From: Botryllus schlosseri
Taxonomy: Eukaryota
Direction of reading: 5' to 3'
Assembly (NCBI GenBank): GCA_051294905.1
Contig: CM119372.1
Coordinates: 24,430,001 to 24,494,000, forward strand
DNA: 64,000 nt
The first letter of the stretch is position 1. Each line of letters begins with the position of its first letter. Under the pieces are notes generated by a model, which was given only the letters and a program-made list of their open reading frames with translations, had not been told where the DNA came from and did not search any database. Shown here in pieces: positions 22,666-43,073 of the stretch. Position numbers and translations under genes: made by a program.

Positions 22666-25354
22666 CACTATACGGTAGTAGTCAGATCAGCGATGAGGAG
22701 CCTGTTGCTATGTATGAAACGTGTCGAATTATTGTATCGAAATATTGAAACACATATCACGTGGAAGTGTTGTTGTAGATTTGAATTGATTTTCTCGTGT
22801 CTGCTTGGAGGTTGAAGATGAGTGATCGGCATTCTGCGAACCAAAATGACCACAAACAGGGTAGACATAAAGGGTATTATCCCTGTCTCAAGGCAGGTCT
22901 AATGCAATGTCATTCGGCGAAACAATCATGTCAACTGCGTAGTTCATGGACTTTAGATTTCATAAAGTAAAAAGTAGTTTTAGGATATCCTTGCATCGCG
23001 ATTTTGATCGGCCCGCGAACAGTTATCTGTAAATCAGAACATAAAACCTACTTTTGAATGTTAATCCGTGGAATAGGATGATAGGCTGTGTATACGGAAC
23101 CGGACATTCGTTCACTATGCAGCCTGTTTATTTGTTTGTAGCGATTACGTTTAGCCTACGTACGTCATATAAGTGATACAGATTCAAAATACAGCCACTG
23201 TATAGTAAAGTGTGCCGTGACAATTAAAGCAACAATATAAGTCACTGTTTCATATAGTTCCATTCAAACCTTCTTTGTTGCCAGTGTCACATTTACACAC
23301 TTTGTGCTTCAAATTGGTACGTGATACGTTTCCAATTCCTGAATCAAGTCCACCAGGGTTGGAACCGTCCTTTTAGTTTGTGGCGAGCAGGTCACCACGG
23401 AGTATAATTGAGGTCGGTATAATGGCAAAAACACGAAGACAGACATTGGGCTAAAGGAGGACAAATTTCGGAGGCACTGCTAGTTTCCATCAACAACAAA
23501 GCATATTTTACCAAGTTGCACACTGCTCGGGAAGCAGCGACCAAGACAAGCTTTGTAGTATCCTAAATACACGTTATTGTATTAATAAAAAAAGAATCTA
23601 TATGTGGGGGGGGGGTTAAAAAGAGTTTAAAATGTATCATGCGAATAAATATTATTTTTGTTAATTTACCGACACTTTCCCATTGCCTAATATCAGTAAA
23701 TCCATTAAGAACCATGTATTTACATTGTAATTCACTGTTTTCAATTTAGAAATACAATTGAATACGCCACAGAATATAGATTTTTGACTCGGCCCGCCAA
23801 CGAATTTTCTGCTTTGGCCTGCGGGGAAAATTATTGCCCACCCCTGCCTAAAAGTGTGCGATCCCTCGATTTCGATACTACTTTAGTCGAGTACTTCGAG
23901 TACTTTTCTACTTTAGTCGCAACGCAAAGTAAATATACCACCGATGCCACCGATGTGTGTGGCTAAGTCTTTGAGTTCTGCGTTTACGAACTTGAACAAG
24001 ATACGTTTGTTGCTATTACAAATAAAAATGTCAACATTGAAACCAGAATTTCACAGCACATAAGTCATAGGATCGCTTAAATCGTTCGTACATGATACAT
24101 ATCACATATAGAGCCAAACAGTCAGCTCCATGAGTGACATGCGACCAATGACACCAAGGGTAGGCCTGCTCAGAATAACAGTTACTCACTCAACAACGAA
24201 AGAGTCGTAGACCGAGCACCACATATTCTTCCGCGTATCATCAGGAAATCACTCCCGTACCACAGGTTGAGAACCACCGATATTAGAGAATACGCATTAC
24301 CGGCTTGGAATAAGTTTCTGGCTTCATTGTTGCGGATATATCTCTGGAAACGGGCACACACGATTATAGAACCAAATTAAGTTGTACTTTATTATATTTA
24401 CCGAATCATTATGTTCCACTCTCATCCATACTTTGAACAAACACGGAGAATGTGTCACCTTCGCCCGAAAGGAGTCCTGCAATCCTATTGTTCCGTTGGA
24501 CTATGAATGTCAGCCAATGAAACTCACCCGCACATTCCGCAACTTCCTGATCGTATATCTCATATTATATGATGATGTTATGTCAACAGTAAGAAGGAAA
24601 CATCTCGTACAATAAACCAAACATGGCACATGTAGCTATTCTGACATGAAAAAAGTAGATAGGCCTATATAGACGATACTCTGGACTGACGTTTCAATAA
24701 AAGTATGCAAAGCATCTTATTAGACATCCAACTCCATTCTGCCTAGTGGTTTGGATTAAACATACGTAAGTTGCTTCAAAAACGTTCTCACAAATATTGT
24801 GCAGTCGGTGTTTGCGCGCAATTCAATGGGTATGTTATGTTCATCTATCCAGTTCATACATGCACATACTAGAGCAGTGGTTCTTAAACGGTGTTCCATA
24901 CAACACTATGGGCTCCGTGCGCCAGTTTCAGGCGTTTCGCTGGATGTCACTCACTCCACTCAAACATATATGATTTGTGATGATACGCACGTCTTGATCA
25001 TCATAGGCCCGGCCACTAGTCGAAATTTTTATTGTGATTGTGAATGGAGAATCGTGTTGTTTTGATTCGTCGTGTGCAGCGGCGTCCGCAGGGGAGGTTG
25101 CAGTTTGAAATAGATACATTTTCCTGAAATGCCAATTCCATCTCCAATACGGATAAGCTATTTGTAATTAGGCGATTGGTATCGCGCTGTTGCGTTTTGA
25201 CCGAACAATATTATAACACTCGCATTTCTAAACTGGTATCTGAGTGGGAATATCAGAATTGAAACTGATTTGGAATAAATATTCATTAAAATATTTTCGT
25301 TTTGTGTGAAAATTAAAATTTGATGGTGAGGTTCTTTTAACACTCTGCTTATGC

Positions 25355-25691
25355 CACTAGTCAATACACATTTTGGTGCCAATAATAATTCCAAGGTTTT
25401 AGGGTATTTTTATGTCGCTGAATCCAAAAATGTCATTTATTGTTCCGAATTGGCTCTATTTTTCGAGATATTCCATATTTTTTCGAAAAGTGCTGAAAAT
25501 ACTCAAATATTGACATTTAGGTAAAATTATCTTTGTATACTACGGTTTAGGTGTATTCTCATGTCGCTAAATCCAAAAATGACAATAGTTTACCGAATTG
25601 GCTCTAGTTTTTGAGATATTCCGTATTGTTGTTCGAAAAGTGCTACAATTCTCTTTATAGGCCAATACGACGACTTCGATGAGTTAACATC
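25355..25691 (-). mobile_element. Probable end of a Chapaev-like transposon interrupted by the palindromic element
   Basis: Starts CACTAGTCAA and has a duplicated subterminal block (about 25411-25495 and 25561-25645). The transposase remnant resumes at about 40900-41130. Confidence 0.45.
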
Positions 25692-25959
25692 AGTAGTAGA
25701 GAAATGGTGGATATAGCCGCATATCGTCTTTTAACTTAAAGAAACTAAAATCTCTAATAAAATAAAGAAACAAAGGATAACGGACTTACGCATTTTGCAG
25801 AATTGCAGTTCGTGACGGATTGCTGCAAGCGATCTGATCGATATGTGGCTGTTTGATTTCCGTTTGAAATGAGTTTGGTGTAATATTTGTGACGTAATTC
25901 TCGCGGTTGTGGCGTGACTCGTTATTTATGAGTGGATTGATCACTGGTTCTGCCTGTTG

Positions 25960-28030
25960 ATTTCAAAACCCGGCTGACCTATCGTGTCGCGCTTTCTGGA
26001 ATTGAGTAAGGTTGCTATCTGCGTGTCAAAACTCGTTTGCGGTGAATATAATTTTATTATCAGGCGAATAATATCAAGGTTATTGTCTTTGTTGTAATCG
26101 AATCTTTCTGGATCTCTATGGTGTGTACTCCGACGAAACGGAAAAGTTGACGCGGCATGACGCGGCGTGTAATCGTGGGTTGGTTCATCCAATTTCTCTT
26201 GAATGTGATGGGATGAGGGAAAATTTGCCCATTGAACATTACAGCTGTGAAGTAAACGCTCCTCTTGATCCGTATATGAGAGCCTTATGCTATATCTCAA
26301 GTGCACGGTCAAGGCGTTGGGCCAAACGAAACGATGTAAATTCACGCTTGCCGTTTGAACTGGCATACTCTGGTCCGGAACGATAACCGTTCAGCTCCGT
26401 ATTAGAGTGATATATATGTATTCTTGGTATCATTTTCAAGGCTACTTGCAGAATTACGTAACTCACTATCGGGGGATGAACGGATTCCGAAACTAGAAAT
26501 GGTCCTGCCTGGCGATTTAAAACTCGGCTGACCTATCATGTCGATCAATGATTTCCGGTTCAATTGAATACGGCTGCTATCTGCGTATAATCAAAACTCG
26601 TTTATGTTAAATTAAACTCGTTTGAATTTATTATCAGGCGAATATACTCAAGGTTACTGTATTATTTGCTGTAATTTTCCGCGTATGACGATCGAATCTT
26701 TTTGGATCTCTGTAGTGTGTAACCCGACGAAACGGAAAAGCTCGCCTGGCGTGACTCGCCGTGTCAGCGTGTAATGGCGGGTTGATTGATTGATGGGTAT
26801 ATGATGACAATTTATGCTATGTTTCAAGCGTACGGTCAAGGTCACACGAATCGATGTAAAGTCTCGCTTGGTTGGATTCTCGTACTTGGATGGGGTGGGG
26901 GGTGGCTGACTAAGGGGCTACACATCCAAAACTACTTCCGTAACCAAATGTCAGTCAGGCGCAGAGACGAGCGGATATAAAAATTTGGTATTCTGAAACC
27001 ATCTTGCTCCGGCTTATATTTTAAAACTCAACTGGCGTATGATTTCTCTTGAATCTCTCAATCAATAATTCCCGGTTCAATCGAGTGTGAATGCAAGCTG
27101 TCTGTGTGGTGCACGCGTTATCAAATCAAACTCGTTTGTGTCATTGAGTCCATGGTAGGCCTATATCACATTGATATCATTGTAAGCAGACAGTTTTGAG
27201 TAACTATGTGGGATTCTATTGAAAACAGCTTTATTACAAAGAAGCCGAGATAAGTCCATCGCTGTTGCTACTTGCTACCCGCCATTTTCAAGTGGTTTTT
27301 GACGACGTCCAAAGCTACTTCCCGCAGCTTACGACAGTAGAGAGCGAGTGTGCCAGGAGCGAGCCTCGTATACGGTACAAACGAGTGTGGATTTGAATGG
27401 GAAAACAAGGCATTGGGGGATCTTTACTGGATTACTTTTGGATTTAAGTTTATTCGGACCCGGATTTGTGGATTTTACATGCTACTCGCGAAATAATATC
27501 GCGGGCAAGTGATCCCCATGAATCAGCCGTGATCGATCGGGGGTGATGCGATGATGTCAGTCTGGATTCAAAATACTCGTTTGGATTAATCACATCAAAG
27601 TAATCAGTTTTCTTCTGGCTCGTGACTCTTGCATCGATGTGGTTCCTGTATCGAGAACTACGATACTAGATTCCATTGTACGCCGACGAATCGGGGCTCG
27701 TATACTGTACAAATGAGCGTGAATTCGGATGGGAGTACGGCGCATTGGAGTATTTTTACTGGATTACTTTTGGATTTACGTATATCCGGACAAGGATTTT
27801 TTAAATTGTACATGCTACTGGCGAAATAATTGCGCTAGTAAGTGATGGCCATAAATCAGCCGTGATCGATCGAGAGTGATACGATGATGTCAGTCGGGGT
27901 TTAAAATACTCATTTCGATTAATTCCATCAACGTAGTCATCTTCTTCTGACTCGTGACTCTTCCGTCGATGTGGTTCCTGTATTGAGAACTATACGATAC
28001 TCGATTCCATTGTACGCTGACGTATCGGAA
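25960..28030 (+). repeat. Diverged subterminal direct repeats in the palindrome arm (mirrored at about 38250-40320)
   Basis: About 25960-26350 resembles 26513-26870, and about 27400-27695 resembles 27740-28030. All four share a TGTA...GACG.A.CGG motif. Confidence 0.75.
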
Positions 28031-28769
28031 AAGTTCGCCTCGTTTCGTAGGATACTGGGGGAAAGGTTTAATCTCGCTGAATACGAGTTTGGGAATATTT
28101 GGCGTTATATTCGAGTGATAAAAAAACTTATCTCTAGGCAAGTAGACGTACTTGCTGAGTGATTGTAGCCTGCGACCCAAATTCCCATTGTCTCTGTCCA
28201 CAATCGCTTGTGAAGTGGTGTAATGAATCGGTGATCCGAATCCAGCCCGGAATTGCTCCTGCTCCTGGACCCGATCGTAATCACCTCCGCTCAGATGTGA
28301 TCAACCTGTTGACGGATATACAGTCTTGTCGTCATCGTTGTATGTTAAGTTGACGGAATAATACTTGATCATAATGAGCAATCTGTAAGATATACATCTC
28401 AGTAGTACCGTGTTTTCTGTTTCACGGTCATACAAATCGGGTGCAGTTCAGATTAGCAAGAAATCGAGCAGTTTCATTTTCCTGGTACTGAGTTGAGACG
28501 CAATAACTACTGGTCAGGCGTAATCATCTTCCATCTACAAAGGATGTTTCATTTTGGTATGGCTGCATATCAATTGTGTATATAAACTTGTATTTCGGCA
28601 GTCGATGAAGAAAATATGTAACCCGTTTGCTAAATATGTATGTTGTCTATTTTAGGAACACGAGAAGTGAAGTACATCAACAGTTTGATGTCAAAGAAAA
28701 TATTATCCATGACGAAGCGTGAATAATGATTTTACCCGCTGCGTGTCGAAATAGCGTATAGCGTATAGC

Positions 28770-29030
28770 GTATAATAGCGTCGATTCCGCAGCTGCAACA
28801 CCAATGGGTTGCGGGTTCGAGTCCGACTGAGTTCGACTGCAGAATTCTTACCCAAGTGTTCGATGTTTATCTAGGCTCCTATTTTTCATATAATCCGTAC
28901 AAGCGATGCCTTCTAGAAGCTCAGAAGTGGGCAGTGCTACAAGTCGGTATCTACAGGACACAAATGACGTAAATCGTCCTGGTTGAAATGACCGTATTAG
29001 CAGTCTACAAGCACCATGAATATCACAAAC
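28770..29030 (+). mobile_element. tRNA-derived SINE inside the palindrome arm (mirror at about 37250-37510)
   Basis: B-box-like GGGTTCGAGTCC. Related copies at about 57200-57440 and 10880-11000. Confidence 0.65.
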
Positions 29031-29420
29031 AACGAAACAAACTCTACCCGCCATGATATCGACTCCAGCAGGACATATTTTCGATATATTGAGATATGTA
29101 AATTTCATTCTTAATATTTTCAATCTTGCAAGCGAACCATCTTTTAGGGCGGCAATAATACAAGATTTGTCGTTATCGACTAACGCTGTCAAGGGCGATT
29201 TGGTGTATGGAAATGTGAATATTGATTACGACGGTGCGATTTTGGACGGTTCGCCGCGGTAAACGATCCTTGATATCAGGAAACAATCAGGCGCAGTCTG
29301 AAAATATAGTCGAACATTCGTACCCTGCTACAATACCAAGCACAAAGCGTTATTGGAAAAAAAAATGCGATGAAGCGGCGATCGATATGCATCGTACAAA
29401 GACGTAGTAGTAGTCACGCA

Positions 29421-29423
<3 letters not shown>

Positions 29424-29467
<44 letters not shown>
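29424..29467 (+). repeat. (CA)n microsatellite (mirror (TG)n at about 36814-36857)
   Basis: Seen directly. Confidence 0.97.
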
Positions 29468-29470
<3 letters not shown>

Positions 29471-30051
29471 AATACTAGTCAGATTATAGGACCACGAACT
29501 AACATATCGATCCAGTTTTCCGTCCCATGCCACCTCATTTTGTCTCTTTCCTTTCATATTCTCTGCTTTAGTTTTCATTCGGTGTGCATTCCTCTTCTTT
29601 ACTTTACCTATGCCAAGGTGGGTGTGCGATTTCAAAGACTACTCCAAGCTCCAATTCGTTTCGACACCTTCCTGTCTTTCATTGTATCGCAGTTTTGTAG
29701 TGTTTTGAAACGATGAAAATATTAATAAACTAACACTGATACACTAAATTATCCCAAGAACAGCTGCAATACAGAAACGTTTGAGGTCTATATATTTGCG
29801 ATTTTTTATTGCGTGTGAAGATTTAAAAACGACTAGCAGAATAGGTAGGAGAAGACTGGAGGAGCAAGCTCTAGCACATAATAGACATTTCGTCCATCAG
29901 TATTGGTGTTTGTAAGGCAGGGCTAGAATCTGTGTAAAATGAGGAAAATTACTATAATATGAATGCGAGGCATTCAATAGCACCCAAGCAGAGTTCTGAA
30001 AAACGTGAGTTGAACTGGATTGGATCCGAAAATGAACAATGCGCAGTGAGC

Positions 30052-30480
30052 ACAATGACTCGGACTCGAGTCTCAACACCGTGATTCGGAGTTGAATATT
30101 CGAATCCTGAGTTGGACTCGGTGGTGAATGGAAAATGATTCGACTTGACTCGAGTCCTACCGAATGTTGGGATTAAGTCACCATCCTCGAGTCACGAATA
30201 GGGCTAGGCACAATGATTCGTGTACCCGAATCTGAAACGAGTAATATATATAACGATTCTAGTCGAGTAGTAAAAGACGATTTTTTTTTTCGAGTACTGA
30301 AAATATACGCTTCTATCGCCACTAAACGGCAATTTATCAACGAAAGTCATAGGTTCGATACTAGTTTCAAGTGTGGAAGCTGTAAAACTTTGATTGGTCG
30401 TATCGCAGCATACGAAACCTACAGACTACAGTACAATGCTACGAAAGTTACTGAAAATAACAAATCGCTGGTATGCCAGC
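30052..30480. mobile_element. Fragments of two host MITE families inside the palindrome arm
   Basis: A GACTCGAGTC-type piece (tgttgggattaagtcacc) and a TAGGGCTAGGCACAATGATTCG piece similar to 54477-55004. Confidence 0.65.
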
Positions 30481-31917
30481 TAGTTTTATGGCTCTACAGC
30501 ATCACCAGATTCTTATGACTCTATATGGCGGGTGTTTTCAACCCGGATCCAATCATCTGGATAGTAAGTAGCCTATACACAAGTAAGTAACTCCGTCGGT
30601 CGGAAGAAGTAGGCGTATCACGCGATATACTTTTTCGTATCATAGATAATGATATCATGCAAATTCTGCACGAGATGTGTCTTGGAAGTGGCACGTAAAA
30701 CGTTGTTGTCCCCCACCAATATAGCTTCTCTAGATGAGATGTCTTATTCGTTTTGCTATCTGACCCGTTTGTGGAAATCTTCAGCGACAATTATTGTTCT
30801 GGGGATCATTTTCGTTGAGTATTAAAATATGGTCTCTCGCAGAGCGTGACGGTCAACAAATGTATGTCTCAAATATTCAGCGGAAACCGGGGTACATTAT
30901 TGTTCGAGACTCCTATATATGACTTGGAATAAAGCACCGATGCCTTGTCATTCAGAGGCTGCTGTATCGAGAGCGTCCATGGCAGTTGATCGAATAATCA
31001 TGTGAGAAGATGGTCAAATATGATTGTCTACCTATCTATTATGAATATTCTATTTCGGAGTGTTTCCTTGTATATCCCCGAGAGTGACGACATAGAGTCG
31101 ACTATTACTGATCTCGCGATGTGAGAATACAACTCGTGAAAAGAAGCTTGTGATCTGTGATGGATTACAGAATATTCCGATGTCAACGCTGACGTTCTTG
31201 AAAATGGTGTGATTCGTTATAGTTCTGATCTTGTGTGACTACCCCAAACAGTAGATTATCGACTATAAAACGTTTGTGTAGCTATAATTCGTATCCAAGT
31301 TGTTGAACTAAGACATATGACGGTAGAATCGAATGCCATACATAAAAACTTATTCAAATACCTACTAAGAGTGAACATTACAACGTTGAGTCACTTGAAA
31401 AGTTGTCGTGGTAGCGGAATATTGTTTGTGAATCGATATGGTTAGTAACAGTTGGATTGTTCGCACATTTAATGCTATTTATCGATATCGGATCGGCTTA
31501 TGAAATATCAGTGTGAGAACCAAGTGCGTGCCAACTGCCCTTTGTTGATGGAAATAAACACCTGTCTCCCGTATTGCTGTCAGAAAACAATCTGTTTTCA
31601 TGAAATACGCATATTTGCACGCCAAGTCCTGCTAATTTTGTTGCCCGTTCGTTTTTGTATTAACATTAAGTGTGTAGTATCGCTCCTTTGGCGATGGTAA
31701 TTTGGCGGAAAAAGTCAGCACCTAAGATTAAAAAAAATCAACCAGAGAACGAGCTGTTTCTCCGTGACCTTTCAATATTCACCTATGGTTTTGAATTCAC
31801 AGCAAATGACGTTATTGTTGACAATATGTGAATTGCTATCGAAGATTCGTAGTAATGGTTTTGTCTGTTTTTAGGATGATATATTTCTCAAACAGTTTCC
31901 AAAAATGAGAGACTGTT

Positions 31918-33000
31918 ATGGGAAGACACTTCGACCCGGATCCGCCAGTACAGAGATGCGTATATATCGCGTCGGGTTCTCACCGCTCCGAATTATATAG
32001 ACTCGCTACGTTCGCCAGGTTTTCGAGACTGTCGTACGCAAAGCGTGCAGATTTAGCATCTGACGGATATTATTGGCTGGGGTTCGAAGACAAAATTAAA
32101 TGTTTCGGATGCAGTATTTCACTCGAAAAATGGGTTGAAAAGGATACGAATGTAAGTTGTCATGAAGCGAGTTGTGTTCGAGACGTATTCAATATTCCCG
32201 TTGAAAGATCGAATTTCAGGAGTCTATTACGGGAGTTTAAGCTCCAAATCGAGACACCGCAAGTCAATAACAGCGACATAAAACTTGCGAATATCATTGA
32301 CCGAGAACACGCGTGTTTGATTAAGAACCTCGACTTGAAAAGGGAATCGAAGCGACGCGAAACCTTCAAGAAATGGCCTAGCTATCCAATACCCCACGCA
32401 GTAGGCGAGTTGGCGAAACAAGGGTTTTTCTATCTCGGTAACTTAGACAGAACGCAGTGCTTTAGCTGCTTCGGTGTTCTTCGCAATTGGAAACCCATAG
32501 ACGACGTATCGGAAATACACCTTACACATTTTCCAAAATGTACTTTCGCACGTGGTAGCTTTTCAGGAAATATCGCACTAGCTGAGCAAGACCGCGGTAA
32601 TTTGGATGACTTACTTCACGAGAAAATACGACGGCTCACTATCAATGTGAAAGAACCAGATGAGCCATCCGAGGATGAAAAACACTATCTTGCTGAACTA
32701 TTCCCTTGCCTTAACCCCGCGAATCCTGTAATGTCGTCCTTGTCACGAAGAATAGCAACCTTCGACGAAGGTTGGGATCCCGCTAAAATCAATGCTAGCG
32801 TTGAGCAATTAGCAAATGCGGGGTTTTATTACATCGATTCGGACAAGACGAAATGTTTTTACTGCAATGGTGGACTTCGGTGGGACCGGACAGACGAGGT
32901 TTGGACGGAACATGCTAAATGGCCAGTTAGAATGTCCCGTCTAATCCAACTGATAGAAATAGAAGTAGTCCAACACAAGGCACTTGAGTATGTAGTGTAA
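31918..33000 (+). CDS. IAP (BIR-domain) protein, truncated copy: BIR1, BIR2, incomplete BIR3 and an unrelated 25-aa tail
   Basis: Same protein as the minus copy up to EHAKW (32922), then reads spacer sequence. It lacks the last zinc-binding Cys of BIR3. Confidence 0.85.
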   Translation: MGRHFDPDPPVQRCVYIASGSHRSELYRLATFARFSRLSYAKRADLASDGYYWLGFEDKIKCFGCSISLEKWVEKDTNVSCHEASCVRDVFNIPVERSNFRSLLREFKLQIETPQVNNSDIKLANIIDREHACLIKNLDLKRESKRRETFKKWPSYPIPHAVGELAKQGFFYLGNLDRTQCFSCFGVLRNWKPIDDVSEIHLTHFPKCTFARGSFSGNIALAEQDRGNLDDLLHEKIRRLTINVKEPDEPSEDEKHYLAELFPCLNPANPVMSSLSRRIATFDEGWDPAKINASVEQLANAGFYYIDSDKTKCFYCNGGLRWDRTDEVWTEHAKWPVRMSRLIQLIEIEVVQHKALEYVV

Positions 33001-33047
33001 TTAGGTAAAACCTACCACAATTCTGAGAAAAAAATAGAAGTACTTCA

Positions 33048-33172
33048 TGACTGCCACCACTGCGTTCTACGTCAGTCCCACAAGTCTAGAAACAATGCAA
33101 AGATGTCCACATGCTATAGTCATATTCATTTATATTTATTTCACATCGTTTACACGTCACGGCCTCTCCCAT
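33048..33172 (-). pseudogene. Frameshifted RING-finger remnant downstream of the IAP ORF
   Basis: Minus-strand frames give MGEAVTCKRCEININE, then MTIACGHLC, then CF*TCGTDVERSGGSH. Confidence 0.65.
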
Positions 33173-34364
33173 TTTCGATGCAATCCAACGGTGATCCATC
33201 GTTTGATTGACGATTCCGCAGAACATTTTGTCGTTTAGTCAACTCCAACTTCGTGATGGGGTTTCTAATAATCGGACGGTTGAGATTTGGATATGTGTTT
33301 TCGATGCGTCGCCCGAATTCGATACCTTTCATACGAAGTACGTACTCGCATTGCGGAAACCATTTAGCATGTTCCGTCCAAACCTCGTCTGTCCGGTCCC
33401 ACCGAAGTCCACCATTGCAGTAAAAACATTTCGTCTTGTCCGAATCGATGTAATAAAACCCCGCATTTGCTAATTGCTCAACGCTAGCATTGATTTTAGC
33501 GGGATCCCAACCTTCGTCGAAGGTTGCTATTCTTCGTGACAAGGACGACATTACAGGATTCGCAGGGTTAAGGCAAGGGAATAGTTCAGCAAGATAGTGT
33601 TTTTCATCCTCGGATGGCTCATCTGGTTCTTTCACATTGATAGTGAGCCGTCGTATTTTCTCGTGAAGTAAGTCATCCAAATTACCGCGGTCTTGCTCAG
33701 CTAGTGCGATATTTCCTGAAAAGCTACCACGTGCGAAAGTACATTTTGGAAAATGTGTAAGGTGTATTTCCGATACGTCGTCTATGGGTTTCCAATTGCG
33801 AAGAACACCGAAGCAGCTAAAGCACTGCGTTCTGTCTAAGTTACCGAGATAGAAAAACCCTTGTTTCGCCAACTCGCCTACTGCGTGGGGTATTGGATAG
33901 CTAGGCCATTTCTTGAAGGTTTCGCGTCGCTTCGATTCCCTTTTCAAGTCGAGGTTCTTAATCAAACACGCGTGTTCTCGGTCAATGATATTCGCAAGTT
34001 TTATGTCGCTGTTATTGACTTGCGGTGTCTCGATTTGGAGCTTAAACTCCCGTAATAGACTCCTGAAATTCGATCTTTCAACGGGAATATTGAATACGTC
34101 TCGAACACAACTCGCTTCATGACAACTTACATTCGTATCCTTTTCAACCCATTTTTCGAGTGAAATACTGCATCCGAAACATTTAATTTTGTCTTCGAAC
34201 CCCAGCCAATAATATCCGTCAGATGCTAAATCTGCACGCTTTGCGTACGACAGTCTCGAAAACCTGGCGAACGTAGCGAGTCTATATAATTCGGAGCGGT
34301 GAGAACCCGACGCGATATATACGCATCTCTGTACTGGCGGATCCGGGTCGAAGTGTCTTCCCAT
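33150..34364 (-). CDS. Inhibitor of apoptosis protein, three BIR domains, intronless, 404 aa, no intact RING
   Basis: BIR1 RLATF..CFGC..H..C; BIR2 RRETF..GFFY..CFSC..H..FPKC; BIR3 RIATF..AGFYY..CFYCNGGL..EHAKWFPQC. Confidence 0.95.
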   Translation of the reverse strand: MGRHFDPDPPVQRCVYIASGSHRSELYRLATFARFSRLSYAKRADLASDGYYWLGFEDKIKCFGCSISLEKWVEKDTNVSCHEASCVRDVFNIPVERSNFRSLLREFKLQIETPQVNNSDIKLANIIDREHACLIKNLDLKRESKRRETFKKWPSYPIPHAVGELAKQGFFYLGNLDRTQCFSCFGVLRNWKPIDDVSEIHLTHFPKCTFARGSFSGNIALAEQDRGNLDDLLHEKIRRLTINVKEPDEPSEDEKHYLAELFPCLNPANPVMSSLSRRIATFDEGWDPAKINASVEQLANAGFYYIDSDKTKCFYCNGGLRWDRTDEVWTEHAKWFPQCEYVLRMKGIEFGRRIENTYPNLNRPIIRNPITKLELTKRQNVLRNRQSNDGSPLDCIENGRGRDV

Positions 34365-36810
34365 AACAGTCTCTCATTTTTGGAAACTGTTTGAGAAATA
34401 TATCATCCTAAAAACAGACAAAACCATTACTACGAATCTTCGATAGCAATTCACATATTGTCAACAATAACGTCATTTGCTGTGAATTCAAAACCATAGG
34501 TGAATATTGAAAGGTCACGGAGAAACAGCTCGTTCTCTGGTTGATTTTTTTTAATCTTAGGTGCTGACTTTTTCCGCCAAATTACCATCGCCAAAGGAGC
34601 GATACTACACACTTAATGTTAATACAAAAACGAACGGGCAACAAAATTAGCAGGACTTGGCGTGCAAATATGCGTATTTCATGAAAACAGATTGTTTTCT
34701 GACAGCAATACGGGAGACAGGTGTTTATTTCCATCAACAAAGGGCAGTTGGCACGCACTTGGTTCTCACACTGATATTTCATAAGCCGATCCGATATCGA
34801 TAAATAGCATTAAATGTGCGAACAATCCAACTGTTACTAACCATATCGATTCACAAACAATATTCCGCTACCACGACAACTTTTCAAGTGACTCAACGTT
34901 GTAATGTTCACTCTTAGTAGGTATTTGAATAAGTTTTTATGTATGGCATTCGATTCTACCGTCATATGTCTTAGTTCAACAACTTGGATACGAATTATAG
35001 CTACACAAACGTTTTATAGTCGATAATCTACTGTTTGGGGTAGTCACACAAGATCAGAACTATAACGAATCACACCATTTTCAAGAACGTCAGCGTTGAC
35101 ATCGGAATATTCTGTAATCCATCACAGATCACAAGCTTCTTTTCACGAGTTGTATTCTCACATCGCGAGATCAGTAATAGTCGACTCTATGTCGTCACTC
35201 TCGGGGATATACAAGGAAACACTCCGAAATAGAATATTCATAATAGATAGGTAGACAATCATATTTGACCATCTTCTCACATGATTATTCGATCAACTGC
35301 CATGGACGCTCTCGATACAGCAGCCTCTGAATGACAAGGCATCGGTGCTTTATTCCAAGTCATATATAGGAGTCTCGAACAATAATGTACCCCGGTTTCC
35401 GCTGAATATTTGAGACATACATTTGTTGACCGTCACGCTCTGCGAGAGACCATATTTTAATACTCAACGAAAATGATCCCCAGAACAATAATTGTCGCTG
35501 AAGATTTCCACAAACGGGTCAGATAGCAAAACGAATAAGACATCTCATCTAGAGAAGCTATATTGGTGGGGGACAACAACGTTTTACGTGCCACTTCCAA
35601 GACACATCTCGTGCAGAATTTGCATGATATCATTATCTATGATACGAAAAAGTATATCGCGTGATACGCCTACTTCTTCCGACCGACGGAGTTACTTACT
35701 TGTGTATAGGCTACTTACTATCCAGATGATTGGATCCGGGTTGAAAACACCCGCCATATAGAGTCATAAGAATCTGGTGATGCTGTAGAGCCATAAAACT
35801 AGCTGGCATACCAGCGATTTGTTATTTTCAGTAACTTTCGTAGCATTGTACTGTAGTCTGTAGGTTTCGTATGCTGCGATACGACCAATCAAAGTTTTAC
35901 AGCTTCCACACTTGAAACTAGTATCGAACCTATGACTTTCGTTGATAAATTGCCGTTTAGTGGCGATAGAAGCGTATATTTTCAGTACTCGAAAAAAAAA
36001 TCGTCTTTTACTACTCGACTAGAATCGTTATATATATTACTCGTTTCAGATTCGGGTACACGAATCATTGTGCCTAGCCCTATTCGTGACTCGAGGATGG
36101 TGACTTAATCCCAACATTCGGTAGGACTCGAGTCAAGTCGAATCATTTTCCATTCACCACCGAGTCCAACTCAGGATTCGAATATTCAACTCCGAATCAC
36201 GGTGTTGAGACTCGAGTCCGAGTCATTGTGCTCACTGCGCATTGTTCATTTTCGGATCCAATCCAGTTCAACTCACGTTTTTCAGAACTCTGCTTGGGTG
36301 CTATTGAATGCCTCGCATTCATATTATAGTAATTTTCCTCATTTTACACAGATTCTAGCCCTGCCTTACAAACACCAATACTGATGGACGAAATGTCTAT
36401 TATGTGCTAGAGCTTGCTCCTCCAGTCTTCTCCTACCTATTCTGCTAGTCGTTTTTAAATCTTCACACGCAATAAAAAATCGCAAATATATAGACCTCAA
36501 ACGTTTCTGTATTGCAGCTGTTCTTGGGATAATTTAGTGTATCAGTGTTAGTTTATTAATATTTTCATCGTTTCAAAACACTACAAAACTGCGATACAAT
36601 GAAAGACAGGAAGGTGTCGAAACGAATTGGAGCTTGGAGTAGTCTTTGAAATCGCACACCCACCTTGGCATAGGTAAAGTAAAGAAGAGGAATGCACACC
36701 GAATGAAAACTAAAGCAGAGAATATGAAAGGAAAGAGACAAAATGAGGTGGCATGGGACGGAAAACTGGATCGATATGTTAGTTCGTGGTCCTATAATCT
36801 GACTAGTATT

Positions 36811-36858
<48 letters not shown>

Positions 36859-39800
36859 GTGCGTGACTACTACTACGTCTTTGTACGATGCATATCGATC
36901 GCCGCTTCATCGCATTTTTTTTCCAATAACGCTTTGTGCTTGGTATTGTAGCAGGGTACGAATGTTCGACTATATTTTCAGACTGCGCCTGATTGTTTCC
37001 TGATATCAAGGATCGTTTACCGCGGCGAACCGTCCAAAATCGCACCGTCGTAATCAATATTCACATTTCCATACACCAAATCGCCCTTGACAGCGTTAGT
37101 CGATAACGACAAATCTTGTATTATTGCCGCCCTAAAAGATGGTTCGCTTGCAAGATTGAAAATATTAAGAATGAAATTTACATATCTCAATATATCGAAA
37201 ATATGTCCTGCTGGAGTCGATATCATGGCGGGTAGAGTTTGTTTCGTTGTTTGTGATATTCATGGTGCTTGTAGACTGCTAATACGGTCATTTCAACCAG
37301 GACGATTTACGTCATTTGTGTCCTGTAGATACCGACTTGTAGCACTGCCCACTTCTGAGCTTCTAGAAGGCATCGCTTGTACGGATTATATGAAAAATAG
37401 GAGCCTAGATAAACATCGAACACTTGGGTAAGAATTCTGCAGTCGAACTCAGTCGGACTCGAACCCGCAACCCATTGGTGTTGCAGCTGCGGAATCGACG
37501 CTATTATACGCTATACGCTATACGCTATTTCGACACGCAGCGGGTAAAATCATTATTCACGCTTCGTCATGGATAATATTTTCTTTGACATCAAACTGTT
37601 GATGTACTTCACTTCTCGTGTTCCTAAAATAGACAACATACATATTTAGCAAACGGGTTACATATTTTCTTCATCGACTGCCGAAATACAAGTTTATATA
37701 CACAATTGATATGCAGCCATACCAAAATGAAACATCCTTTGTAGATGGAAGATGATTACGCCTGACCAGTAGTTATTGCGTCTCAACTCAGTACCAGGAA
37801 AATGAAACTGCTCGATTTCTTGCTAATCTGAACTGCACCCGATTTGTATGACCGTGAAACAGAAAACACGGTACTACTGAGATGTATATCTTACAGATTG
37901 CTCATTATGATCAAGTATTATTCCGTCAACTTAACATACAACGATGACGACAAGACTGTATATCCGTCAACAGGTTGATCACATCTGAGCGGAGGTGATT
38001 ACGATCGGGTCCAGGAGCAGGAGCAATTCCGGGCTGGATTCGGATCACCGATTCATTACACCACTTCACAAGCGATTGTGGACAGAGACAATGGGAATTT
38101 GGGTCGCAGGCTACAATCACTCAGCAAGTACGTCTACTTGCCTAGAGATAAGTTTTTTTATCACTCGAATATAACGCCAAATATTCCCAAACTCGTATTC
38201 AGCGAGATTAAACCTTTCCCCCAGTATCCTACGAAACGAGGCGAACTTTTCCGATACGTCAGCGTACAATGGAATCGAGTATCGTATAGTTCTCAATACA
38301 GGAACCACATCGACGGAAGAGTCACGAGTCAGAAGAAGATGACTACGTTGATGGAATTAATCGAAATGAGTATTTTAAACCCCGACTGACATCATCGTAT
38401 CACTCTCGATCGATCACGGCTGATTTATGGCCATCACTTACTAGCGCAATTATTTCGCCAGTAGCATGTACAATTTAAAAAATCCTTGTCCGGATATACG
38501 TAAATCCAAAAGTAATCCAGTAAAAATACTCCAATGCGCCGTACTCCCATCCGAATTCACGCTCATTTGTACAGTATACGAGCCCCGATTCGTCGGCGTA
38601 CAATGGAATCTAGTATCGTAGTTCTCGATACAGGAACCACATCGATGCAAGAGTCACGAGCCAGAAGAAAACTGATTACTTTGATGTGATTAATCCAAAC
38701 GAGTATTTTGAATCCAGACTGACATCATCGCATCACCCCCGATCGATCACGGCTGATTCATGGGGATCACTTGCCCGCGATATTATTTCGCGAGTAGCAT
38801 GTAAAATCCACAAATCCGGGTCCGAATAAACTTAAATCCAAAAGTAATCCAGTAAAGATCCCCCAATGCCTTGTTTTCCCATTCAAATCCACACTCGTTT
38901 GTACCGTATACGAGGCTCGCTCCTGGCACACTCGCTCTCTACTGTCGTAAGCTGCGGGAAGTAGCTTTGGACGTCGTCAAAAACCACTTGAAAATGGCGG
39001 GTAGCAAGTAGCAACAGCGATGGACTTATCTCGGCTTCTTTGTAATAAAGCTGTTTTCAATAGAATCCCACATAGTTACTCAAAACTGTCTGCTTACAAT
39101 GATATCAATGTGATATAGGCCTACCATGGACTCAATGACACAAACGAGTTTGATTTGATAACGCGTGCACCACACAGACAGCTTGCATTCACACTCGATT
39201 GAACCGGGAATTATTGATTGAGAGATTCAAGAGAAATCATACGCCAGTTGAGTTTTAAAATATAAGCCGGAGCAAGATGGTTTCAGAATACCAAATTTTT
39301 ATATCCGCTCGTCTCTGCGCCTGACTGACATTTGGTTACGGAAGTAGTTTTGGATGTGTAGCCCCTTAGTCAGCCACCCCCCACCCCATCCAAGTACGAG
39401 AATCCAACCAAGCGAGACTTTACATCGATTCGTGTGACCTTGACCGTACGCTTGAAACATAGCATAAATTGTCATCATATACCCATCAATCAATCAACCC
39501 GCCATTACACGCTGACACGGCGAGTCACGCCAGGCGAGCTTTTCCGTTTCGTCGGGTTACACACTACAGAGATCCAAAAAGATTCGATCGTCATACGCGG
39601 AAAATTACAGCAAATAATACAGTAACCTTGAGTATATTCGCCTGATAATAAATTCAAACGAGTTTAATTTAACATAAACGAGTTTTGATTATACGCAGAT
39701 AGCAGCCGTATTCAATTGAACCGGAAATCATTGATCGACATGATAGGTCAGCCGAGTTTTAAATCGCCAGGCAGGACCATTTCTAGTTTCGGAATCCGTT

Positions 39801-40587
39801 CATCCCCCGATAGTGAGTTACGTAATTCTGCAAGTAGCCTTGAAAATGATACCAAGAATACATATATATCACTCTAATACGGAGCTGAACGGTTATCGTT
39901 CCGGACCAGAGTATGCCAGTTCAAACGGCAAGCGTGAATTTACATCGTTTCGTTTGGCCCAACGCCTTGACCGTGCACTTGAGATATAGCATAAGGCTCT
40001 CATATACGGATCAAGAGGAGCGTTTACTTCACAGCTGTAATGTTCAATGGGCAAATTTTCCCTCATCCCATCACATTCAAGAGAAATTGGATGAACCAAC
40101 CCACGATTACACGCCGCGTCATGCCGCGTCAACTTTTCCGTTTCGTCGGAGTACACACCATAGAGATCCAGAAAGATTCGATTACAACAAAGACAATAAC
40201 CTTGATATTATTCGCCTGATAATAAAATTATATTCACCGCAAACGAGTTTTGACACGCAGATAGCAACCTTACTCAATTCCAGAAAGCGCGACACGATAG
40301 GTCAGCCGGGTTTTGAAATCAACAGGCAGAACCAGTGATCAATCCACTCATAAATAACGAGTCACGCCACAACCGCGAGAATTACGTCACAAATATTACA
40401 CCAAACTCATTTCAAACGGAAATCAAACAGCCACATATCGATCAGATCGCTTGCAGCAATCCGTCACGAACTGCAATTCTGCAAAATGCGTAAGTCCGTT
40501 ATCCTTTGTTTCTTTATTTTATTAGAGATTTTAGTTTCTTTAAGTTAAAAGACGATATGCGGCTATATCCACCATTTCTCTACTACT
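33360..40587 (-). repeat. Right arm (7228 bp) of the giant inverted repeat
   Basis: Differences I saw: three 1-nt homopolymer indels and one substitution (C32718 vs A33564). Confidence 0.97.
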
Positions 40588-40899
40588 AACATCTGTCTTT
40601 TCAAGTGTGTGCATGCAGTATTCTTCATTTCTTGATGCGATTTCGTTAAAGACGCAATCGTTAACACAGAGAGCCATACGCGAATCCTGTTTCATGTGTA
40701 AATCAAGCAAAAATTATAAAAATTAGGCGATATCAGCATTAAACAACTAATTTTTGTACTGCAAAAACAGGAGACGTCAAAGCACAAACACTAATTTTAG
40801 TAACACTCAAAGTTCATTTAGTAAGCTGCCGAAACAGGCTGATTAATCATATACCTGTACTGTAATAAAATAATTAATCATTGTTTATAAATTTTCTTT

Positions 40900-41135
40900 G
40901 GTACGACTTTCTGGAATGTGACGCACGCAAGCAGTCACGTTGGAGACTCCAACACTAGTCGGCCATCATATGTGCATCCCACTGGCCCTGATACCTCTCT
41001 TCGGTGACATTACTGTCCTGCTGGAACCTTTATCCCTGCTCTTCACGTAGACACCGCCAAGGTTTGCAGGAAAACCATCTAAGCGACTGAAGAGATAGTG
41101 AACCTTGATACTGATATTCACACCTGAATCTTTCA
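40900..41135 (-). pseudogene. Chapaev3-like transposase remnant
   Basis: NISIKVHYLFSRLDGFPANLG, a frameshift, then EEQG*RFQQD...ERYQGQWDAHMMAD*CWSLQRD. Confidence 0.75.
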
Positions 41136-43073
41136 AGTTGGGAAGCATACAATGTACCGCGACATGTTTGGAAGCATACATTTGCGACAATGTGAATTAA
41201 CCAACATTTGTAGCCTACCTATCGCAAAGCAGCGTGATGCTGAAATTCTCACACTACCAAAACGACATTGGAACAAATTGTATATTCATTCATGATTCAA
41301 GATGAAATCACAATAAAAATAAGCAATGATAGCACTTATTACAATACAAACCAGCGCATCCATTAGGGCTGTTAACAAATTTTCTTTCATATTTTACTGG
41401 CTACCCAGTGAAATTTGTTTGAGAATACGAAGCATAACGAATTTGGCATAATCTCAAGTTCCAACCCGTAGAAGACATGTTATTAGATTAGAAAATTTGG
41501 GATTCGAAAAAGAACAGTATTCATGGTGAGAAATTCTAACAATCATTACTAATAAAAATTGATGGATGTTTTTAGCCTGCGTAACAATTTTAGTAGCAAA
41601 CCAGTAAACTTACAAAAAAAAGAGTTTTTTAGCAACAGTAGTATCCATTCATACTTTAAGGTAAAATCACCCTTTCCAATGGTTGATCAAAGCAAATAAT
41701 TTACAATGAAAGCAATTGTTGTAATGCAAAGGCATTAAAATGGAAGCACTCATCACCATCGTTGAATGGAAGCCTTTGCGAACGTTGATTGGAAAATGCA
41801 ACCCAGCACGATTATGATCAGCAAACAATTGCCGCAACGCAAGCTATACTAGGAACCTCTTTATCTTCAACGTAAGAGACGAATTACTGTTGGACCACGT
41901 GCATTCTCGTTTGCAATCATATATCGAGTGTGCATGAGCGCTCGATACATTCAATTTCTCTACTTGTCGCTCAACTACACTTGGGGCGCAAATTGAACTT
42001 AATTATTAGCCAAACGACTCGTAGTACGTCGAATTCCGTTCTTATTTGTTCGGTCATATGTCATTGTGGTTTGCACAATGAAAATTACATCAAAAGTGGG
42101 ACGCAAACTGAAAAAGGTTGGGAAGCACTGACCTAGGCTTAGCCTATTTGTTGCATATCTTAACAAAATATTGTTAAGTATATTCTTCATCTTCTTTTTA
42201 TATAACAATTTTCGGTTGGTTTGTACGAATGAGCTTTATTTTGCAAAAACAAAGTGCGGATGGTGCTCAAAAAGGTTGAAAAGAACGTTCCTTGGAGATG
42301 GCTCGACTTTTCTTGTGGATACACATGAAACAGATCTCTGATATATGATCGATATGCTTTTCCAATGTGTCATGTCGCCAAAGTGAATACGCAAGTTGCG
42401 TGAAAAAGTCTTAGCTTGGATAAGGCCCTGTTCGAATCCTGACGGTGAATTGATTTTGGGAAAGCATATGAGTCGATCTATGTTATACTGAGCAATGAGC
42501 CGACTTCTATATAATGCCACTTTATAAAGGGGAAGATTTAACACAAATTTCTGGTTAATAAACATCGTCATGTTCACTTGTGAGTAGCGATCTCTTAGCA
42601 ACAGCAAGTGACAACTTCCAAATTTGAAATTCTCATCACCCCGGCTGACACAAAGTCACTGAGACAAAGACACAAGACGGTATAATATATCTGACAGTAA
42701 TAGAGGAGATATATCGTTCAATCGGTAAACGATTTCGGTAATAAAAAGAATGTCATATTTATATTGAAAATTTTCTTAGAAAGTATGCATTATGTAGTTG
42801 CGCTTGCTTCAAAGAATGTCGTGAGACAGATGAACAATTGTTGCCTGCATGCTTATTATTATGTCAGTATGTCGTTATGTACATGATTGGTCACCTCCGC
42901 CTACATCCGAATTCCAGAATATATTTCCAACTCATATAGAATTTATATTTCATATGACAGTTGAATATTTTATTATCTGATCATAACGGTTTGCGAAGGT
43001 TTTGCGTTAATTTTATTGTGTTGAGTGGCCGCAACTGACTCGTGGTTGGAGGATATCTGGTATAAATAAAACA

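Follow-up and report, generated by a model that had tools for sequence, protein, structure and literature searches.

Protein-primed linear replicons are known to give rise to defective genomes that consist of two head-to-head copies of one end; those of adenovirus are helper-dependent and carry the same origin at both ends, and adenoviral and other snap-back defective genomes are short-lived by-products in infected cells or incomplete particles. Long inverted arms are also found in the Foldback (FB) transposons of Drosophila, which belong to another superfamily, make 9-bp target-site duplications (TSDs) and build their arms from short tandem repeats, and in sex-chromosome palindromes, which are large and non-mobile and undergo arm-to-arm gene conversion. 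Among Polintons (Mavericks), the vertebrate elements described by Barreat and Katzourakis (2021; PMC8097293) have (AGT)2//(ACT)2 ends, terminal inverted repeats (TIRs) of 46-1,447 bp (mean 402) and a length of 16,862 +/- 1,678 bp. Butterfly Polintons are described in a preprint (10.1101/2025.02.07.637071) as polymorphic insertions with ~2-kb TIRs that bear core genes (hexon, adenain) and a unique core between them, and a further preprint (10.1101/2022.07.12.499685) describes nematode Mavericks that carry cargo genes in otherwise complete elements. IAP (and Bcl2) homologues in Polinton-like adintoviruses are already published (PMC8502044), so an IAP cargo on its own is not new. Helper-dependent Polinton derivatives are barely described, and a literature search on non-autonomous or defective Polintons or Mavericks turned up a single paper, in which the term was applied to Tlr1.

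Here we describe a probable derivative of this kind in Botryllus schlosseri, within a stretch of 64,000 nucleotides (GCA_051294905.1, contig CM119372.1, positions 24,430,001 to 24,494,000 of the forward strand) that we refer to as the window.

Structure of the element

A sequence-only reading of the window had proposed a palindromic element of 14.9 kb with arms of about 7.2 kb, a 437-bp spacer, stated termini and an exact AACATC duplication, all of which were confirmed by repeat search, alignment and direct reading. The element begins with AGTAGTAGAG at 25692 and finishes with CTCTACTACT at 40587. In the repeat search of the window, its inverted-repeat arms (25692-32922 and 33360-40587) were separated by 437 nt and consisted of 100%-complementary blocks of 3,673, 867 and 2,641 nt, which were interrupted only by a (CA)n stretch and an indel of 1 bp. 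Aligned with MAFFT, the arms (7,231 versus 7,228 bp) differed at only four places: a substitution at 32718 and three indels of 1 bp each. The "TIRs" of 7.2 kb make up 97% of the element. For comparison among copies, we defined a unit U of 7,665 bp as the reverse complement of 32923-40587. The features are as follows.

25686..25691, no strand: left TSD, AACATC, read directly; equal to the right TSD, a single copy being kept in the empty-site contig
25692..32922, plus strand: left (shorter) arm, 7,231 bp, equal to U1-7228, from the inverted-repeat search, comparison among copies and arm alignment
25692..26407, plus strand: helper-like terminal region opening with (AGT)2, from sequence comparison with the C12 and C1 copies
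26097..26771: direct repeat of ~594 bp, from repeat analysis
27365..28028, no strand: tandem repeat, 332 bp x 2 (83% matches), with a mirror copy in the right arm
31918..32922, plus strand: truncated IAP copy, the same as the intact copy through ORF residue 338, where the arm ends
32923..33359, no strand: centre ("spacer"), 437 bp, from comparison with the C3 and C5 copies
33135..33140, minus strand: AATAAA polyadenylation-like signal starting 10 nt past the IAP stop, a candidate by sequence only
33150..34364, minus strand: intact IAP, a single ORF of 404 codons with its ATG at 34364 and its stop at 33152-33150, from ORF and Pfam analysis
33360..40587, minus strand: right arm, 7,228 bp, which with 32923-33359 makes the complete 7,665-bp unit U
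40588..40593, no strand: right TSD, AACATC, read directly

The 7.7-kb unit comprises a capsid-gene-side Polinton terminus, ~5.5 kb of non-coding filler with nested repeats, and a RING-less three-BIR IAP pointing at the centre. The repeats in the arm amount to a single 332-bp x 2 array, a (CA)n run and the direct repeat of 594 bp. Contigs from other runs skip 594-597 bp at this last repeat, so that its number of copies differs among family members.

When 14 ORFs from an autonomous Polinton (see below) served as tblastn queries, the window gave no match, and 29 of the 30 stop-to-stop ORFs of at least 65 aa in the long arm fell below every Pfam cut-off, the sole exception being the IAP. These searches agree with the prior claim that the element holds no core-gene ORFs, and the profile searches suggested at that time for decayed core genes in the arms likewise returned none. 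Because neither pPolB nor integrase is encoded, we file the element as helper-dependent rather than autonomous, a class that had been proposed from the sequence and that now has shared termini, the 6-bp TSD and absent core genes behind it. We consider it probable that the element belongs to the Polinton/Maverick class as a non-autonomous, helper-dependent derivative, made of one 7.7-kb unit present twice head-to-head, with the replication, origin and IAP role proposed below.

Palindromic relatives and candidate helper Polintons

A search of the genome with the terminal 300 bp, which the sequence-only reading had recommended, gave 41 matches, with 40 of 80 candidates scored, mostly in plus/minus pairs, and the copies had different 6-bp TSDs. 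Elsewhere in the genome there are at least 11 more related palindromes, each with its own 6-bp duplication. IAP-bearing inverted arms were present in all seven further arm-sharing copies (C3, C16, C14, C8, C4, C7a and C5) and in C4b and C6. Across the 15 copies examined, all start with AGTAGT and finish with ACTACT; the TSD was perfect in 12 and matched at 5/6 positions in three, the reading for C12 assuming a third ACT at the right end, and the target sites differed. All copies observed in this analysis are chromosomal, and neither a virion nor a terminal protein was seen.

Polintons with the same termini occur elsewhere in this genome (three partner copies, 16.4-17.7 kb), matching the expectation that an autonomous partner would exist. 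One of them, C12, is 16,435 bp long with TIRs of only 377 bp, and encodes a 1,323-aa protein-primed PolB (the homologues of this ORF carry PF03175), an integrase (Pfam rve, 1.7e-10; match to the PFV integrase, 6e-9) and a capsid protein, P0002. The model of P0002 (pLDDT 91.2, from a 61-sequence alignment) has a double-jelly-roll fold, and Foldseek matched it to iridovirus, PBCV-1, Sputnik and mavirus capsid proteins with E values of 1e-15 to 1e-11 (best 1.2e-15); Pfam DJR-like_dom was detected in only two of the 61 capsid homologues. For the partner's packaging ATPase there were P-loop matches below threshold only, and no adenain-like protease was recognized, the candidate ORF having a best PDB sequence match of E 0.35.

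Over its terminal 375 bases, the window element shows 99.5% identity to the left end of C12; over bases 1-716, identity is 91% to the capsid-gene end of C12 and 87.5% to the corresponding end of C1. Both arms match this capsid-gene end over their first 716 bp, and the relatives are self-complementary through the centre, as anticipated by the suggestion of one end duplicated head-to-head. C12-type Polintons are the putative helper, an assignment made from terminal similarity only. The C12 and C1 copies contain neither an IAP nor the arm interior, and the progenitor of the family's arm was not found among these two.

The uninterrupted palindromic copies (n=10) measure 12.1-15.3 kb versus 16.4-17.7 kb for the partner copies (n=3). 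As a size range, 12.1-15.3 kb is loose.

Origin of the palindrome

The central 437 bp was read originally as a spacer; its length stands, but it is not foreign sequence. Its first 25 nt (32923-32947) are what is left of the loop at the centre of the family's palindromes, and the remaining 412 bp (32948-33359, equal to U7229-7640) form the innermost part of the right-arm unit, with the final 70 codons of the intact IAP and its 3' end. The counterpart has been lost from the left arm: in the C3 and C5 copies this stretch is present in both arms around a ~31-nt loop, and the window copy is therefore one that lacks 418 bp left of the loop. In C3 and C5, self-complementarity continues across the centre without a break, and the two copies, when aligned with MAFFT, have the same loop sequence bar a few changes. 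In C16 and C14, one side also ends at U7665 or U7640 and the other side shows a one-sided loss. Overall, one-sided losses beside the centre were seen in three of four subfamily-1 copies, and comparable arm losses in two of four subfamily-2 copies. Since copies on other chromosomes have a common central loop, we conclude from these alignments that the palindrome arose once for the family and that a one-sided loss of 418 bp next to the loop followed in the window copy.

We infer a polymerase snap-back origin, together with packaging and anti-apoptotic activity. The first palindrome most likely arose through a strand switch by a polymerase that had entered from one end and then returned along its own product, which would leave a loop of ~31 nt. 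Thereafter, the partner's protein-primed polymerase would copy the element from both ends, the AGT repeats serving for jumping back, and the partner's integrase would cut and join the element's identical ends. Packaging may hold the 12-15 kb size near the partner's 16.4 kb.

It is possible, if somewhat doubtful, that the host made the palindrome once, when fold-back priming repaired a double-strand break in a copy derived from a Polinton, giving an inverted duplication, and the product, now with two good ends, was mobilized as any non-autonomous element would be. Such repair would also leave one common centre with a short, ~31-nt loop, and the one-sided losses by the loop in the window copy, C16 and C14 show that host processes do act at the centre. 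However, by-eye inspection revealed no evident short inverted repeat at the loop edges that could have primed the repair, and a second family in this genome, with other arm content and an outward-pointing IAP, is likewise an inverted duplication of a Polinton end; such recurrence fits element-linked replication.

The IAP cargo gene

The intact IAP contains three BIR stretches (PF00653, E 1.9e-50), and the Pfam search found no RING family in it; 227 bp separate its stop codon from the centre. In the truncated copy, the reading frame carries on past the arm and meets a stop at 33000, within the centre, and the final zinc-binding Cys of BIR3 is missing. Among the matches listed, the closest public proteins are RING-bearing tunicate IAPs (40-46% identity), and PF13920 (RING) is found in most of the IAP homologues listed, including all of the best-scoring tunicate ones. 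RNA support for the IAP was close to nil, with reads covering it at less than 1x in the 3% of one single-cell RNA run that was analysed.

We estimated dN/dS with a purpose-written Nei-Gojobori script, the compared copies being non-independent. Values were 0.08-0.17 in all 14 between-subfamily comparisons (23-28 synonymous versus 8-15 non-synonymous changes) and 0.15-0.19 in all eight comparisons with the second family (dS ~1). By these estimates, the IAP was under purifying selection while the family diversified (dN/dS ~0.1-0.2). The copies with premature stops (C3, C16 and C8) each carry an identical private nonsense codon in both arms (3/3), and as judged from such codons the two arms of each copy evolve in concert. 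The domain content and the dN/dS of 0.08-0.19 suggest that the product would inhibit caspases or apoptosis. It probably binds caspases or IAP antagonists, and a host cell harboring the element and its helper would then stay alive while both multiply.

Selection at the level of the host could instead keep the IAP copies as an expanded anti-apoptosis family, with the Polinton derivative a mere vehicle to which the IAP is useless. The genome contains at least 104 IAP matches, most of them arranged as inverted pairs. That many of them have open frames is consistent with this explanation, as are a dN/dS well under 1 and the cellular tunicate IAPs that are the closest relatives among the matches listed. 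We nevertheless regard it as rather unlikely: host selection is expected to be weak on each of many near-identical copies, the existence of copies with private stops is expected under selection on still-transposing lineages and not on resident copies, and IAP homologues are reported in free adintovirus genomes (PMC8502044).

Mobility

In run X1, one contig joins 25684 to 40587 and omits 14,902 bp, with seven letters fitting both sides and the joint flagged "between: not known". The skip equals the element plus one duplication, such that a single AACATC remains. The depth of this contig is 96, and flank contigs with other letters have depths of 85-89. X1 may be the assembly's own source sample. 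Because the allele without the element has one AACATC, the whole palindrome moved as one unit, as the earlier interpretation of the TSD had implied. The window element is a recent insertion and is polymorphic, so the system appears to be active at present.

For the window copy, none of the public-run contigs listed, which are all short, spans the centre or a whole arm, and the internal structure is read from the assembly. This, and arms so nearly identical (four differences), would be compatible with a long-read or polishing error having produced a false inverted duplication. Such an artefact is very improbable given the unique flanks at both ends with a perfect 6-bp duplication, the empty-site contig that omits exactly the element and one duplication, and the at least 11 other loci of the same architecture with their own indels, insertions and centres. 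Least probable of all, to a degree we consider negligible, is that the element belongs to a different, Foldback-like or similar superfamily whose members have long inverted repeats, or is an autonomous Polinton whose TIRs are very long, for although it has long inverted arms with internal repeats and gene-bearing TIRs of ~2 kb are reported for butterfly Polintons (10.1101/2025.02.07.637071), it has a 6-bp TSD, (AGT)2 ends 99.5% common to a pPolB/integrase element, only 437 bp of arm sequence between the arms, and no transposase or core gene that we could find.

Discussion

Polintons are widespread, but to our knowledge neither their replication mode nor particle formation has ever been directly shown. 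Complete palindromes with one common loop are the expected product of a strand-displacing, protein-primed polymerase that switches strands, and the family therefore gives a testable handle on the mechanism of Polinton replication. Our tentative reading, which we put forward as a possibility, is that the palindromes are packaged satellites of an active chordate polintovirus: born by snap-back, sized to the capsid, carrying a double dose of a RING-less IAP that protects the infected cell from death, maintained at each insertion as near-perfect 15-kb palindromes by copying from arm to arm, and, as a by-product, the source of more than 100 IAP genes. If true, they would represent the first natural footprint of Polinton replication. 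A large element family has spread IAP genes through this animal genome, a route by which a family of apoptosis regulators can exceed 100 copies without tandem duplication or retroposition. The copies also provide natural material on how a eukaryotic genome tolerates near-perfect palindromes of 14-15 kb, a question on which the one-sided centre losses, the subfamily-2 arm losses and the concerted arms bear.

FB transposons and sex-chromosome palindromes share long inverted arms with the window family, whose arms are near-identical with private stops in both; unlike FB transposons, the window element has a 6-bp TSD and arms not built of short tandem repeats, and unlike sex-chromosome palindromes it is mobile. 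As in snap-back defective genomes, one end is present head-to-head around a short loop, here known from chromosomal copies alone, and in contrast to defective adenovirus genomes the family is germline-integrated, transposing and diversified, with a selected cargo gene.

With the nematode Mavericks it has in common a virus-like, Polinton-class mover of host-relevant cargo, and the abstract of that preprint (10.1101/2022.07.12.499685) contains no palindromic helper-dependent form. Relative to the autonomous Polintons/Mavericks described in PMC8097293, the 6-bp TSD, (AGT)2//(ACT)2 ends, TIRs and near-equal total length agree, whereas "TIRs" of 7.2 kb and the absence of core genes set the window element apart. 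The butterfly Polintons of preprint 10.1101/2025.02.07.637071 resemble it in their gene-containing inverted terminal duplication, two gene copies per insertion and polymorphism, but in the window the duplication extends to the centre and the core is gone. Finally, like the adintoviruses of Starrett et al. (2021; PMC8502044), it is an animal Polinton-class element with an IAP; those are described as complete genomes with polymerase and virion genes, whereas here the IAP is the sole gene, present twice and RING-less.

The window copy and its gene content

An inverted-repeat search of the window placed the arms at 25692-32922 and 33360-40587, leaving a 437-nt gap; they comprise three 100%-complementary blocks, and the sole interruptions are a (CA)n run and a 1-bp indel. 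Arm-versus-arm alignment (7,231 versus 7,228 bp) gave four differences: a substitution at 32718 and three indels of 1 bp. This element, the window copy, has the ends AGTAGTAGAG and CTCTACTACT and carries AACATC on both flanks as its 6-bp target-site duplication (TSD). A perfect 7.2-kb inverted repeat inside a perfect 6-bp direct repeat is not chance, and the two analyses confirmed the ends, the TSD, the arms of about 7.2 kb and the 437-bp gap described in the sequence-only reading. The window comes from contig C2 of an assembly of 495 Mb. Arm positions (U) refer to the 7,665-bp long arm, the reverse complement of 32923-40587, which contains a 332-bp tandem repeat in two units, a direct repeat of ∼594 bp near its end, and a (CA)26 run.

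Long ORFs in the window copy are confined to two copies of an IAP (a BIR-domain anti-apoptosis gene), converging on the centre:

ATG 34364, stop 33152-33150, minus strand: intact IAP of 404 codons with three BIR domains (Pfam E 1.9e-50)
End of left arm, plus strand: truncated IAP copy, the same as the intact copy up to ORF residue 338 (ORF comparison)

In a Pfam search, the intact minus-strand IAP had no RING domain; an AATAAA starts 10 nt past its stop codon. The plus-strand copy is without the last zinc-binding Cys of BIR3. Among the 30 long-arm ORFs of at least 65 aa, IAP alone passed the Pfam cut-off, and tblastn with 14 ORFs of an autonomous partner Polinton gave no match, either in the window or among the non-autonomous copies. 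The claim that the IAP is the only recognisable cargo and that core genes are absent therefore holds, and no decayed core gene rose above the Pfam cut-off in the arms. A look-up listed no RNA data set containing the stretch, and read depth over the IAP was below 1x in one single-cell RNA run (3% read), which is uninformative on expression either way.

Word depth in contigs of a public sequencing run (X1) reached 7-11 thousand at window 28648-29775 and its mirror 36544-37671, compared with roughly 0.3-2.3 thousand in other arm parts, indicating that part of the arm filler is a much higher-copy repeat; the left-hand stretch takes in the (CA)n run at 29415-29467. At the window's edge, an open frame running off its start (2-1252, plus strand; RNase H E 6.9e-14, RVT_3, sub-cut-off zf-RVT) is the tail of a non-LTR retrotransposon unrelated to the palindromic element. 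Single-cell RNA reads stack at 41257-41296, with loose ends at the two edges (54 and 115 reads); this looks like a small spliced host-gene exon ∼0.7 kb to the right of the insertion, and the window copy may lie in or beside an expressed gene.

Autonomous Polintons sharing the same ends

A genome search with the terminal 300 bp of the window copy gave at least 41 genome matches (40 of 80 candidates scored), mostly plus/minus pairs 12-39 kb apart, and other copies had different 6-bp TSDs. Two of the nine pairs examined, C12 (16,435 bp) and C1 (17,671 bp), are autonomous Polintons whose likeness to the window copy is limited to the terminal 375-716 bp and whose TIRs are ordinary (377-490 bp in C12, 409 bp in C1). 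Arm bases 1-716 matched the capsid-gene end at 91% in C12 and 87.5% in C1, and bases 1-375 matched the other end of C12 at 99.5%.

We assigned a 1,323-aa ORF of C12, our reference partner, as the polymerase because PF03175, the organellar/viral type-B polymerase family, is frequent among its public homologues (best E 2.5e-201), and because the ORF contains what look by eye like polymerase motifs; the ORF itself had no Pfam match and zero PDB sequence matches at E up to 1. C12 also encodes an rve integrase (Pfam 1.7e-10; match to prototype foamy virus integrase 6e-9). A model of its 462-aa ORF built from 61 homologues (pLDDT 91.2) had structural matches (Foldseek E 1e-15 to 1e-11) among double-jelly-roll capsid proteins, namely those of iridovirus, PBCV-1, Sputnik, and mavirus; it superseded a single-sequence AlphaFold model of this capsid candidate, which was unusable (pLDDT 30). 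Thus, the predicted autonomous partner was found as regards pPolB, integrase, and capsid protein, but candidates for the packaging ATPase gave only sub-threshold P-loop matches and no protease was recognised among the C12 ORFs. Relative to the C12 ORF, the Polinton polymerases of the genome form three lineages, at identities of 94-100%, 62-63%, and ∼38%. The polymerase matches, numbering at least 36 (35 of 356 candidates scored) and mostly in uninterrupted frames, indicate that this genome is unusually Polinton-rich.

A family of palindromes with a shared centre

The other seven pairs (C3, C16, C14, C8, C4, C7a, and C5) are inverted duplications of the window-copy unit with an IAP in each arm, as are C4b and C6, which were reached via IAP matches. 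These relatives fall into two groups, at 97-99% and 92-95% identity to the window copy, and every one of their 6-bp duplications is different. With five further copies included, 12 of 15 TSDs were perfect and three matched at 5 of 6 positions. Four of the 15 start with AAC (AACATC, AACACT, and AACGTG twice, at unrelated loci), which may hint at an integrase target preference in a sample (n = 15) too small for a test.

In C3, the two arms extend to U7665 and U7640, leaving 6 bp between them, and C5, a member of the more distant group, stays self-complementary right across the central point of C3; the two have a central loop of ∼31 nt in common, with a few substitutions. Centres are one-sided in C16 (U7665 versus U7064), C14 (U6048 versus U7640), and the window copy (U7228 versus U7665), each keeping one side while 0.4-1.6 kb is absent on the other. 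The common loop and the one-sided losses argue that the ancestor was a full palindrome with a short loop at its middle. The palindrome is thus a family trait that traces to a single origin.

This changes the reading of the 437-bp spacer, which has the size claimed for it but is not separate sequence: it comprises 25 nt of the loop and 412 bp belonging to the right arm; the window copy no longer has the left-arm equivalent of the latter, having lost 418 bp in all. Contigs of two runs depart exactly at 32923, with an undeleted C3-type centre. The proposal that one Polinton end was duplicated head-to-head fits the 716-bp match to the partners' capsid-gene end together with the shared centre.

Some copies are interrupted. 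An 11.8-kb insertion breaks the right arm of C14 (from 7927 of stretch L024 to 9760 of L025) with arm coordinates overlapping by 9 bp (U6231-6239) where it meets the arm, which looks like the landing of another transposon in the IAP, and several kb of extra DNA lie inside the right arm of C5.

A second palindromic family

A separate family of IAP palindromes was represented by three copies, in stretches L029-L034:

C11:11035600-11055599, second-family copy
C3:14854600-14874599, second-family copy
C9:18081250-18101249, second-family copy

Their arms (6.6-7.0 kb) are 99.8-99.9% identical around a centre of 1.2-1.3 kb, for a total of 14.4-15.3 kb; their ends start AGTAGTA and their TSDs are AATATT, ACTATA, and GGCCTT. 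The IAP (382-394 aa) points outward and is 69-73% identical to that of the window copy, and the two families have no DNA similarity outside the IAP and the ends. A search with the second-family terminal 300 bp listed 326 first-look candidates; most pairs are separated by 13.5-14.6 kb, and one, spanning 16,471 bp, encloses a polymerase gene.

A further stretch, L039, contains a join:

L039 8790/8791, within C5:1056001-1066000: second-family IAP arm fused to the 3' flank of a Polinton polymerase gene

Over 2.39 kb, the part made of IAP arm shows 100% identity with three palindromic copies; the rest is 96-98% identical to the polymerase flank of IAP-less Polintons. L039 was considered as the progenitor, a pPolB Polinton bearing a second-family IAP arm, a view weakened by the position of the join exactly where the long arm of the palindromes ends. 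Judged by its sequence, L039 may equally be a progenitor or a recombinant between palindrome and helper.

Insertion history and arm-to-arm copying

We placed contigs of four runs on window 24700-41600. One X1 contig (depth 96) covers 25418-25684 and resumes at 40587; it leaves out 14,902 bp, the exact sum of the element (14,896 bp) and a single AACATC, and its 7 ambiguous letters, which could belong to either side, are the T and AACATC preceding both junctions. The joint was marked "between: not known," and X1 may be the assembly's own sample. The X1 contig represents an empty-site allele with a single AACATC, and because it lacks exactly the element and one TSD, the inference of integration as one unit stands. 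Flank contigs with letters other than the window's had depths of 85 and 89, which fits an individual heterozygous for the insertion. None of the contigs listed for the four runs spans the centre of the window copy. Two runs with other organism codes, X5 and X7, contain family sequence at 97% identity or more and nothing in the first left-flank bin (24700-25263), and in X5 the right flank is likewise without coverage; both runs are silent on the window insertion.

Within copies, the arms are 99.5-100% identical in gapless matches (∼99% in C3 and C5 counting gaps), and divergence between copies is 1-8%. All three copies with premature stops carry an identical private nonsense codon in both arms (codon 156 in C3, codon 74 in C16, and codon 75 in C8, where both arms also share an identical 2-bp insertion). 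A mutation hits one arm, yet both arms carry it, which argues for arm-to-arm copying; this could be chromosomal gene conversion, or replication that uses one arm as template for the other. Arm identity is therefore not a clock, and the evidence that the window copy inserted recently is the empty allele.

Amplification of and selection on the IAP

With the IAP as query, a six-frame genome search that scored 102 of 446 candidates gave at least 104 matches. Among those listed, 41 were at 84-100% identity, mostly convergent pairs like the window copy, and 63 were at 69-73%, most of them in divergent pairs whose members are separated by 4.5-6 kb. With a custom Nei-Gojobori script, dN/dS between the two subfamilies of the window-copy family was 0.08-0.17 in 14 of 14 comparisons (23-28 synonymous versus 8-15 non-synonymous changes), and between the two families it was 0.15-0.19 in 8 of 8, at dS ∼1.0-1.2. 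The compared copies share ancestry; the signal is strong and consistent despite this and indicates that the IAP cargo is under selection. The nearest public proteins are tunicate IAPs, led by Styela clava (43% identity, 89% query coverage) and followed by Ciona, Phallusia, and Clavelina; these tunicate relatives have a RING.

Proposed mechanism

The window copy is a helper-dependent, Polinton-ended element that moved as a unit, has ends common to complete Polintons, carries a conserved IAP, and is palindromic by descent. For its mobilisation, we propose that a partner integrase would act on the two identical ends and a partner polymerase would prime at both. The founder palindrome could have arisen through a strand switch by an inward-copying polymerase, which then copied back out; defective adenovirus genomes with one end in inverted duplication arise by strand switch and copy-back. 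Host repair of long palindromes gives one-sided losses beside the centre, and such repair would explain the one-sided losses seen here.

Uninterrupted copies measure 12.1-15.3 kb in the window-copy family (n = 10) and 11.8-15.3 kb in the second (n = 15), and the partners 16.4-17.7 kb. These palindrome sizes might reflect a packaging limit, to which they are a loose fit; alternatively, a strand switch near mid-genome could set the size. A packaging limit is discussed for Mavericks and adenoviruses in PMC8097293. As for the cargo, the IAP may prevent the death of cells where the element and its helper are multiplying.

Comparison with known elements

Polintons, adintovirus accessory genes of the IAP type, cargo-carrying Mavericks, and gene-bearing TIRs in butterflies are already known. 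Adintoviruses have IAP and Bcl2 homologues (PMC8502044, section 3.2) and butterfly Polintons have gene-bearing TIRs of ∼2 kb (preprint 10.1101/2025.02.07.637071). Within literature outside most subscription journals and Repbase reports, we found no complete-palindrome, core-less Polinton derivative and no such family amplifying one cargo gene; the adintovirus remark (PMC8502044) was the only link found between Polintons, tunicates, and IAPs. The palindrome family appears to be active and is abundant, and it bears on Polinton replication. For intact vertebrate Mavericks, PMC8097293 gives (AGT)2//(ACT)2 ends, a 6-bp duplication, and a size near 17 kb, and relates the repeats at the ends to jumping-back during protein-primed replication. 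The right end of C12 has a third ACT, which would be slippage of the kind that jumping-back allows. In end motif, 6-bp TSD, and near-17-kb size, the elements described here are like those vertebrate Mavericks.
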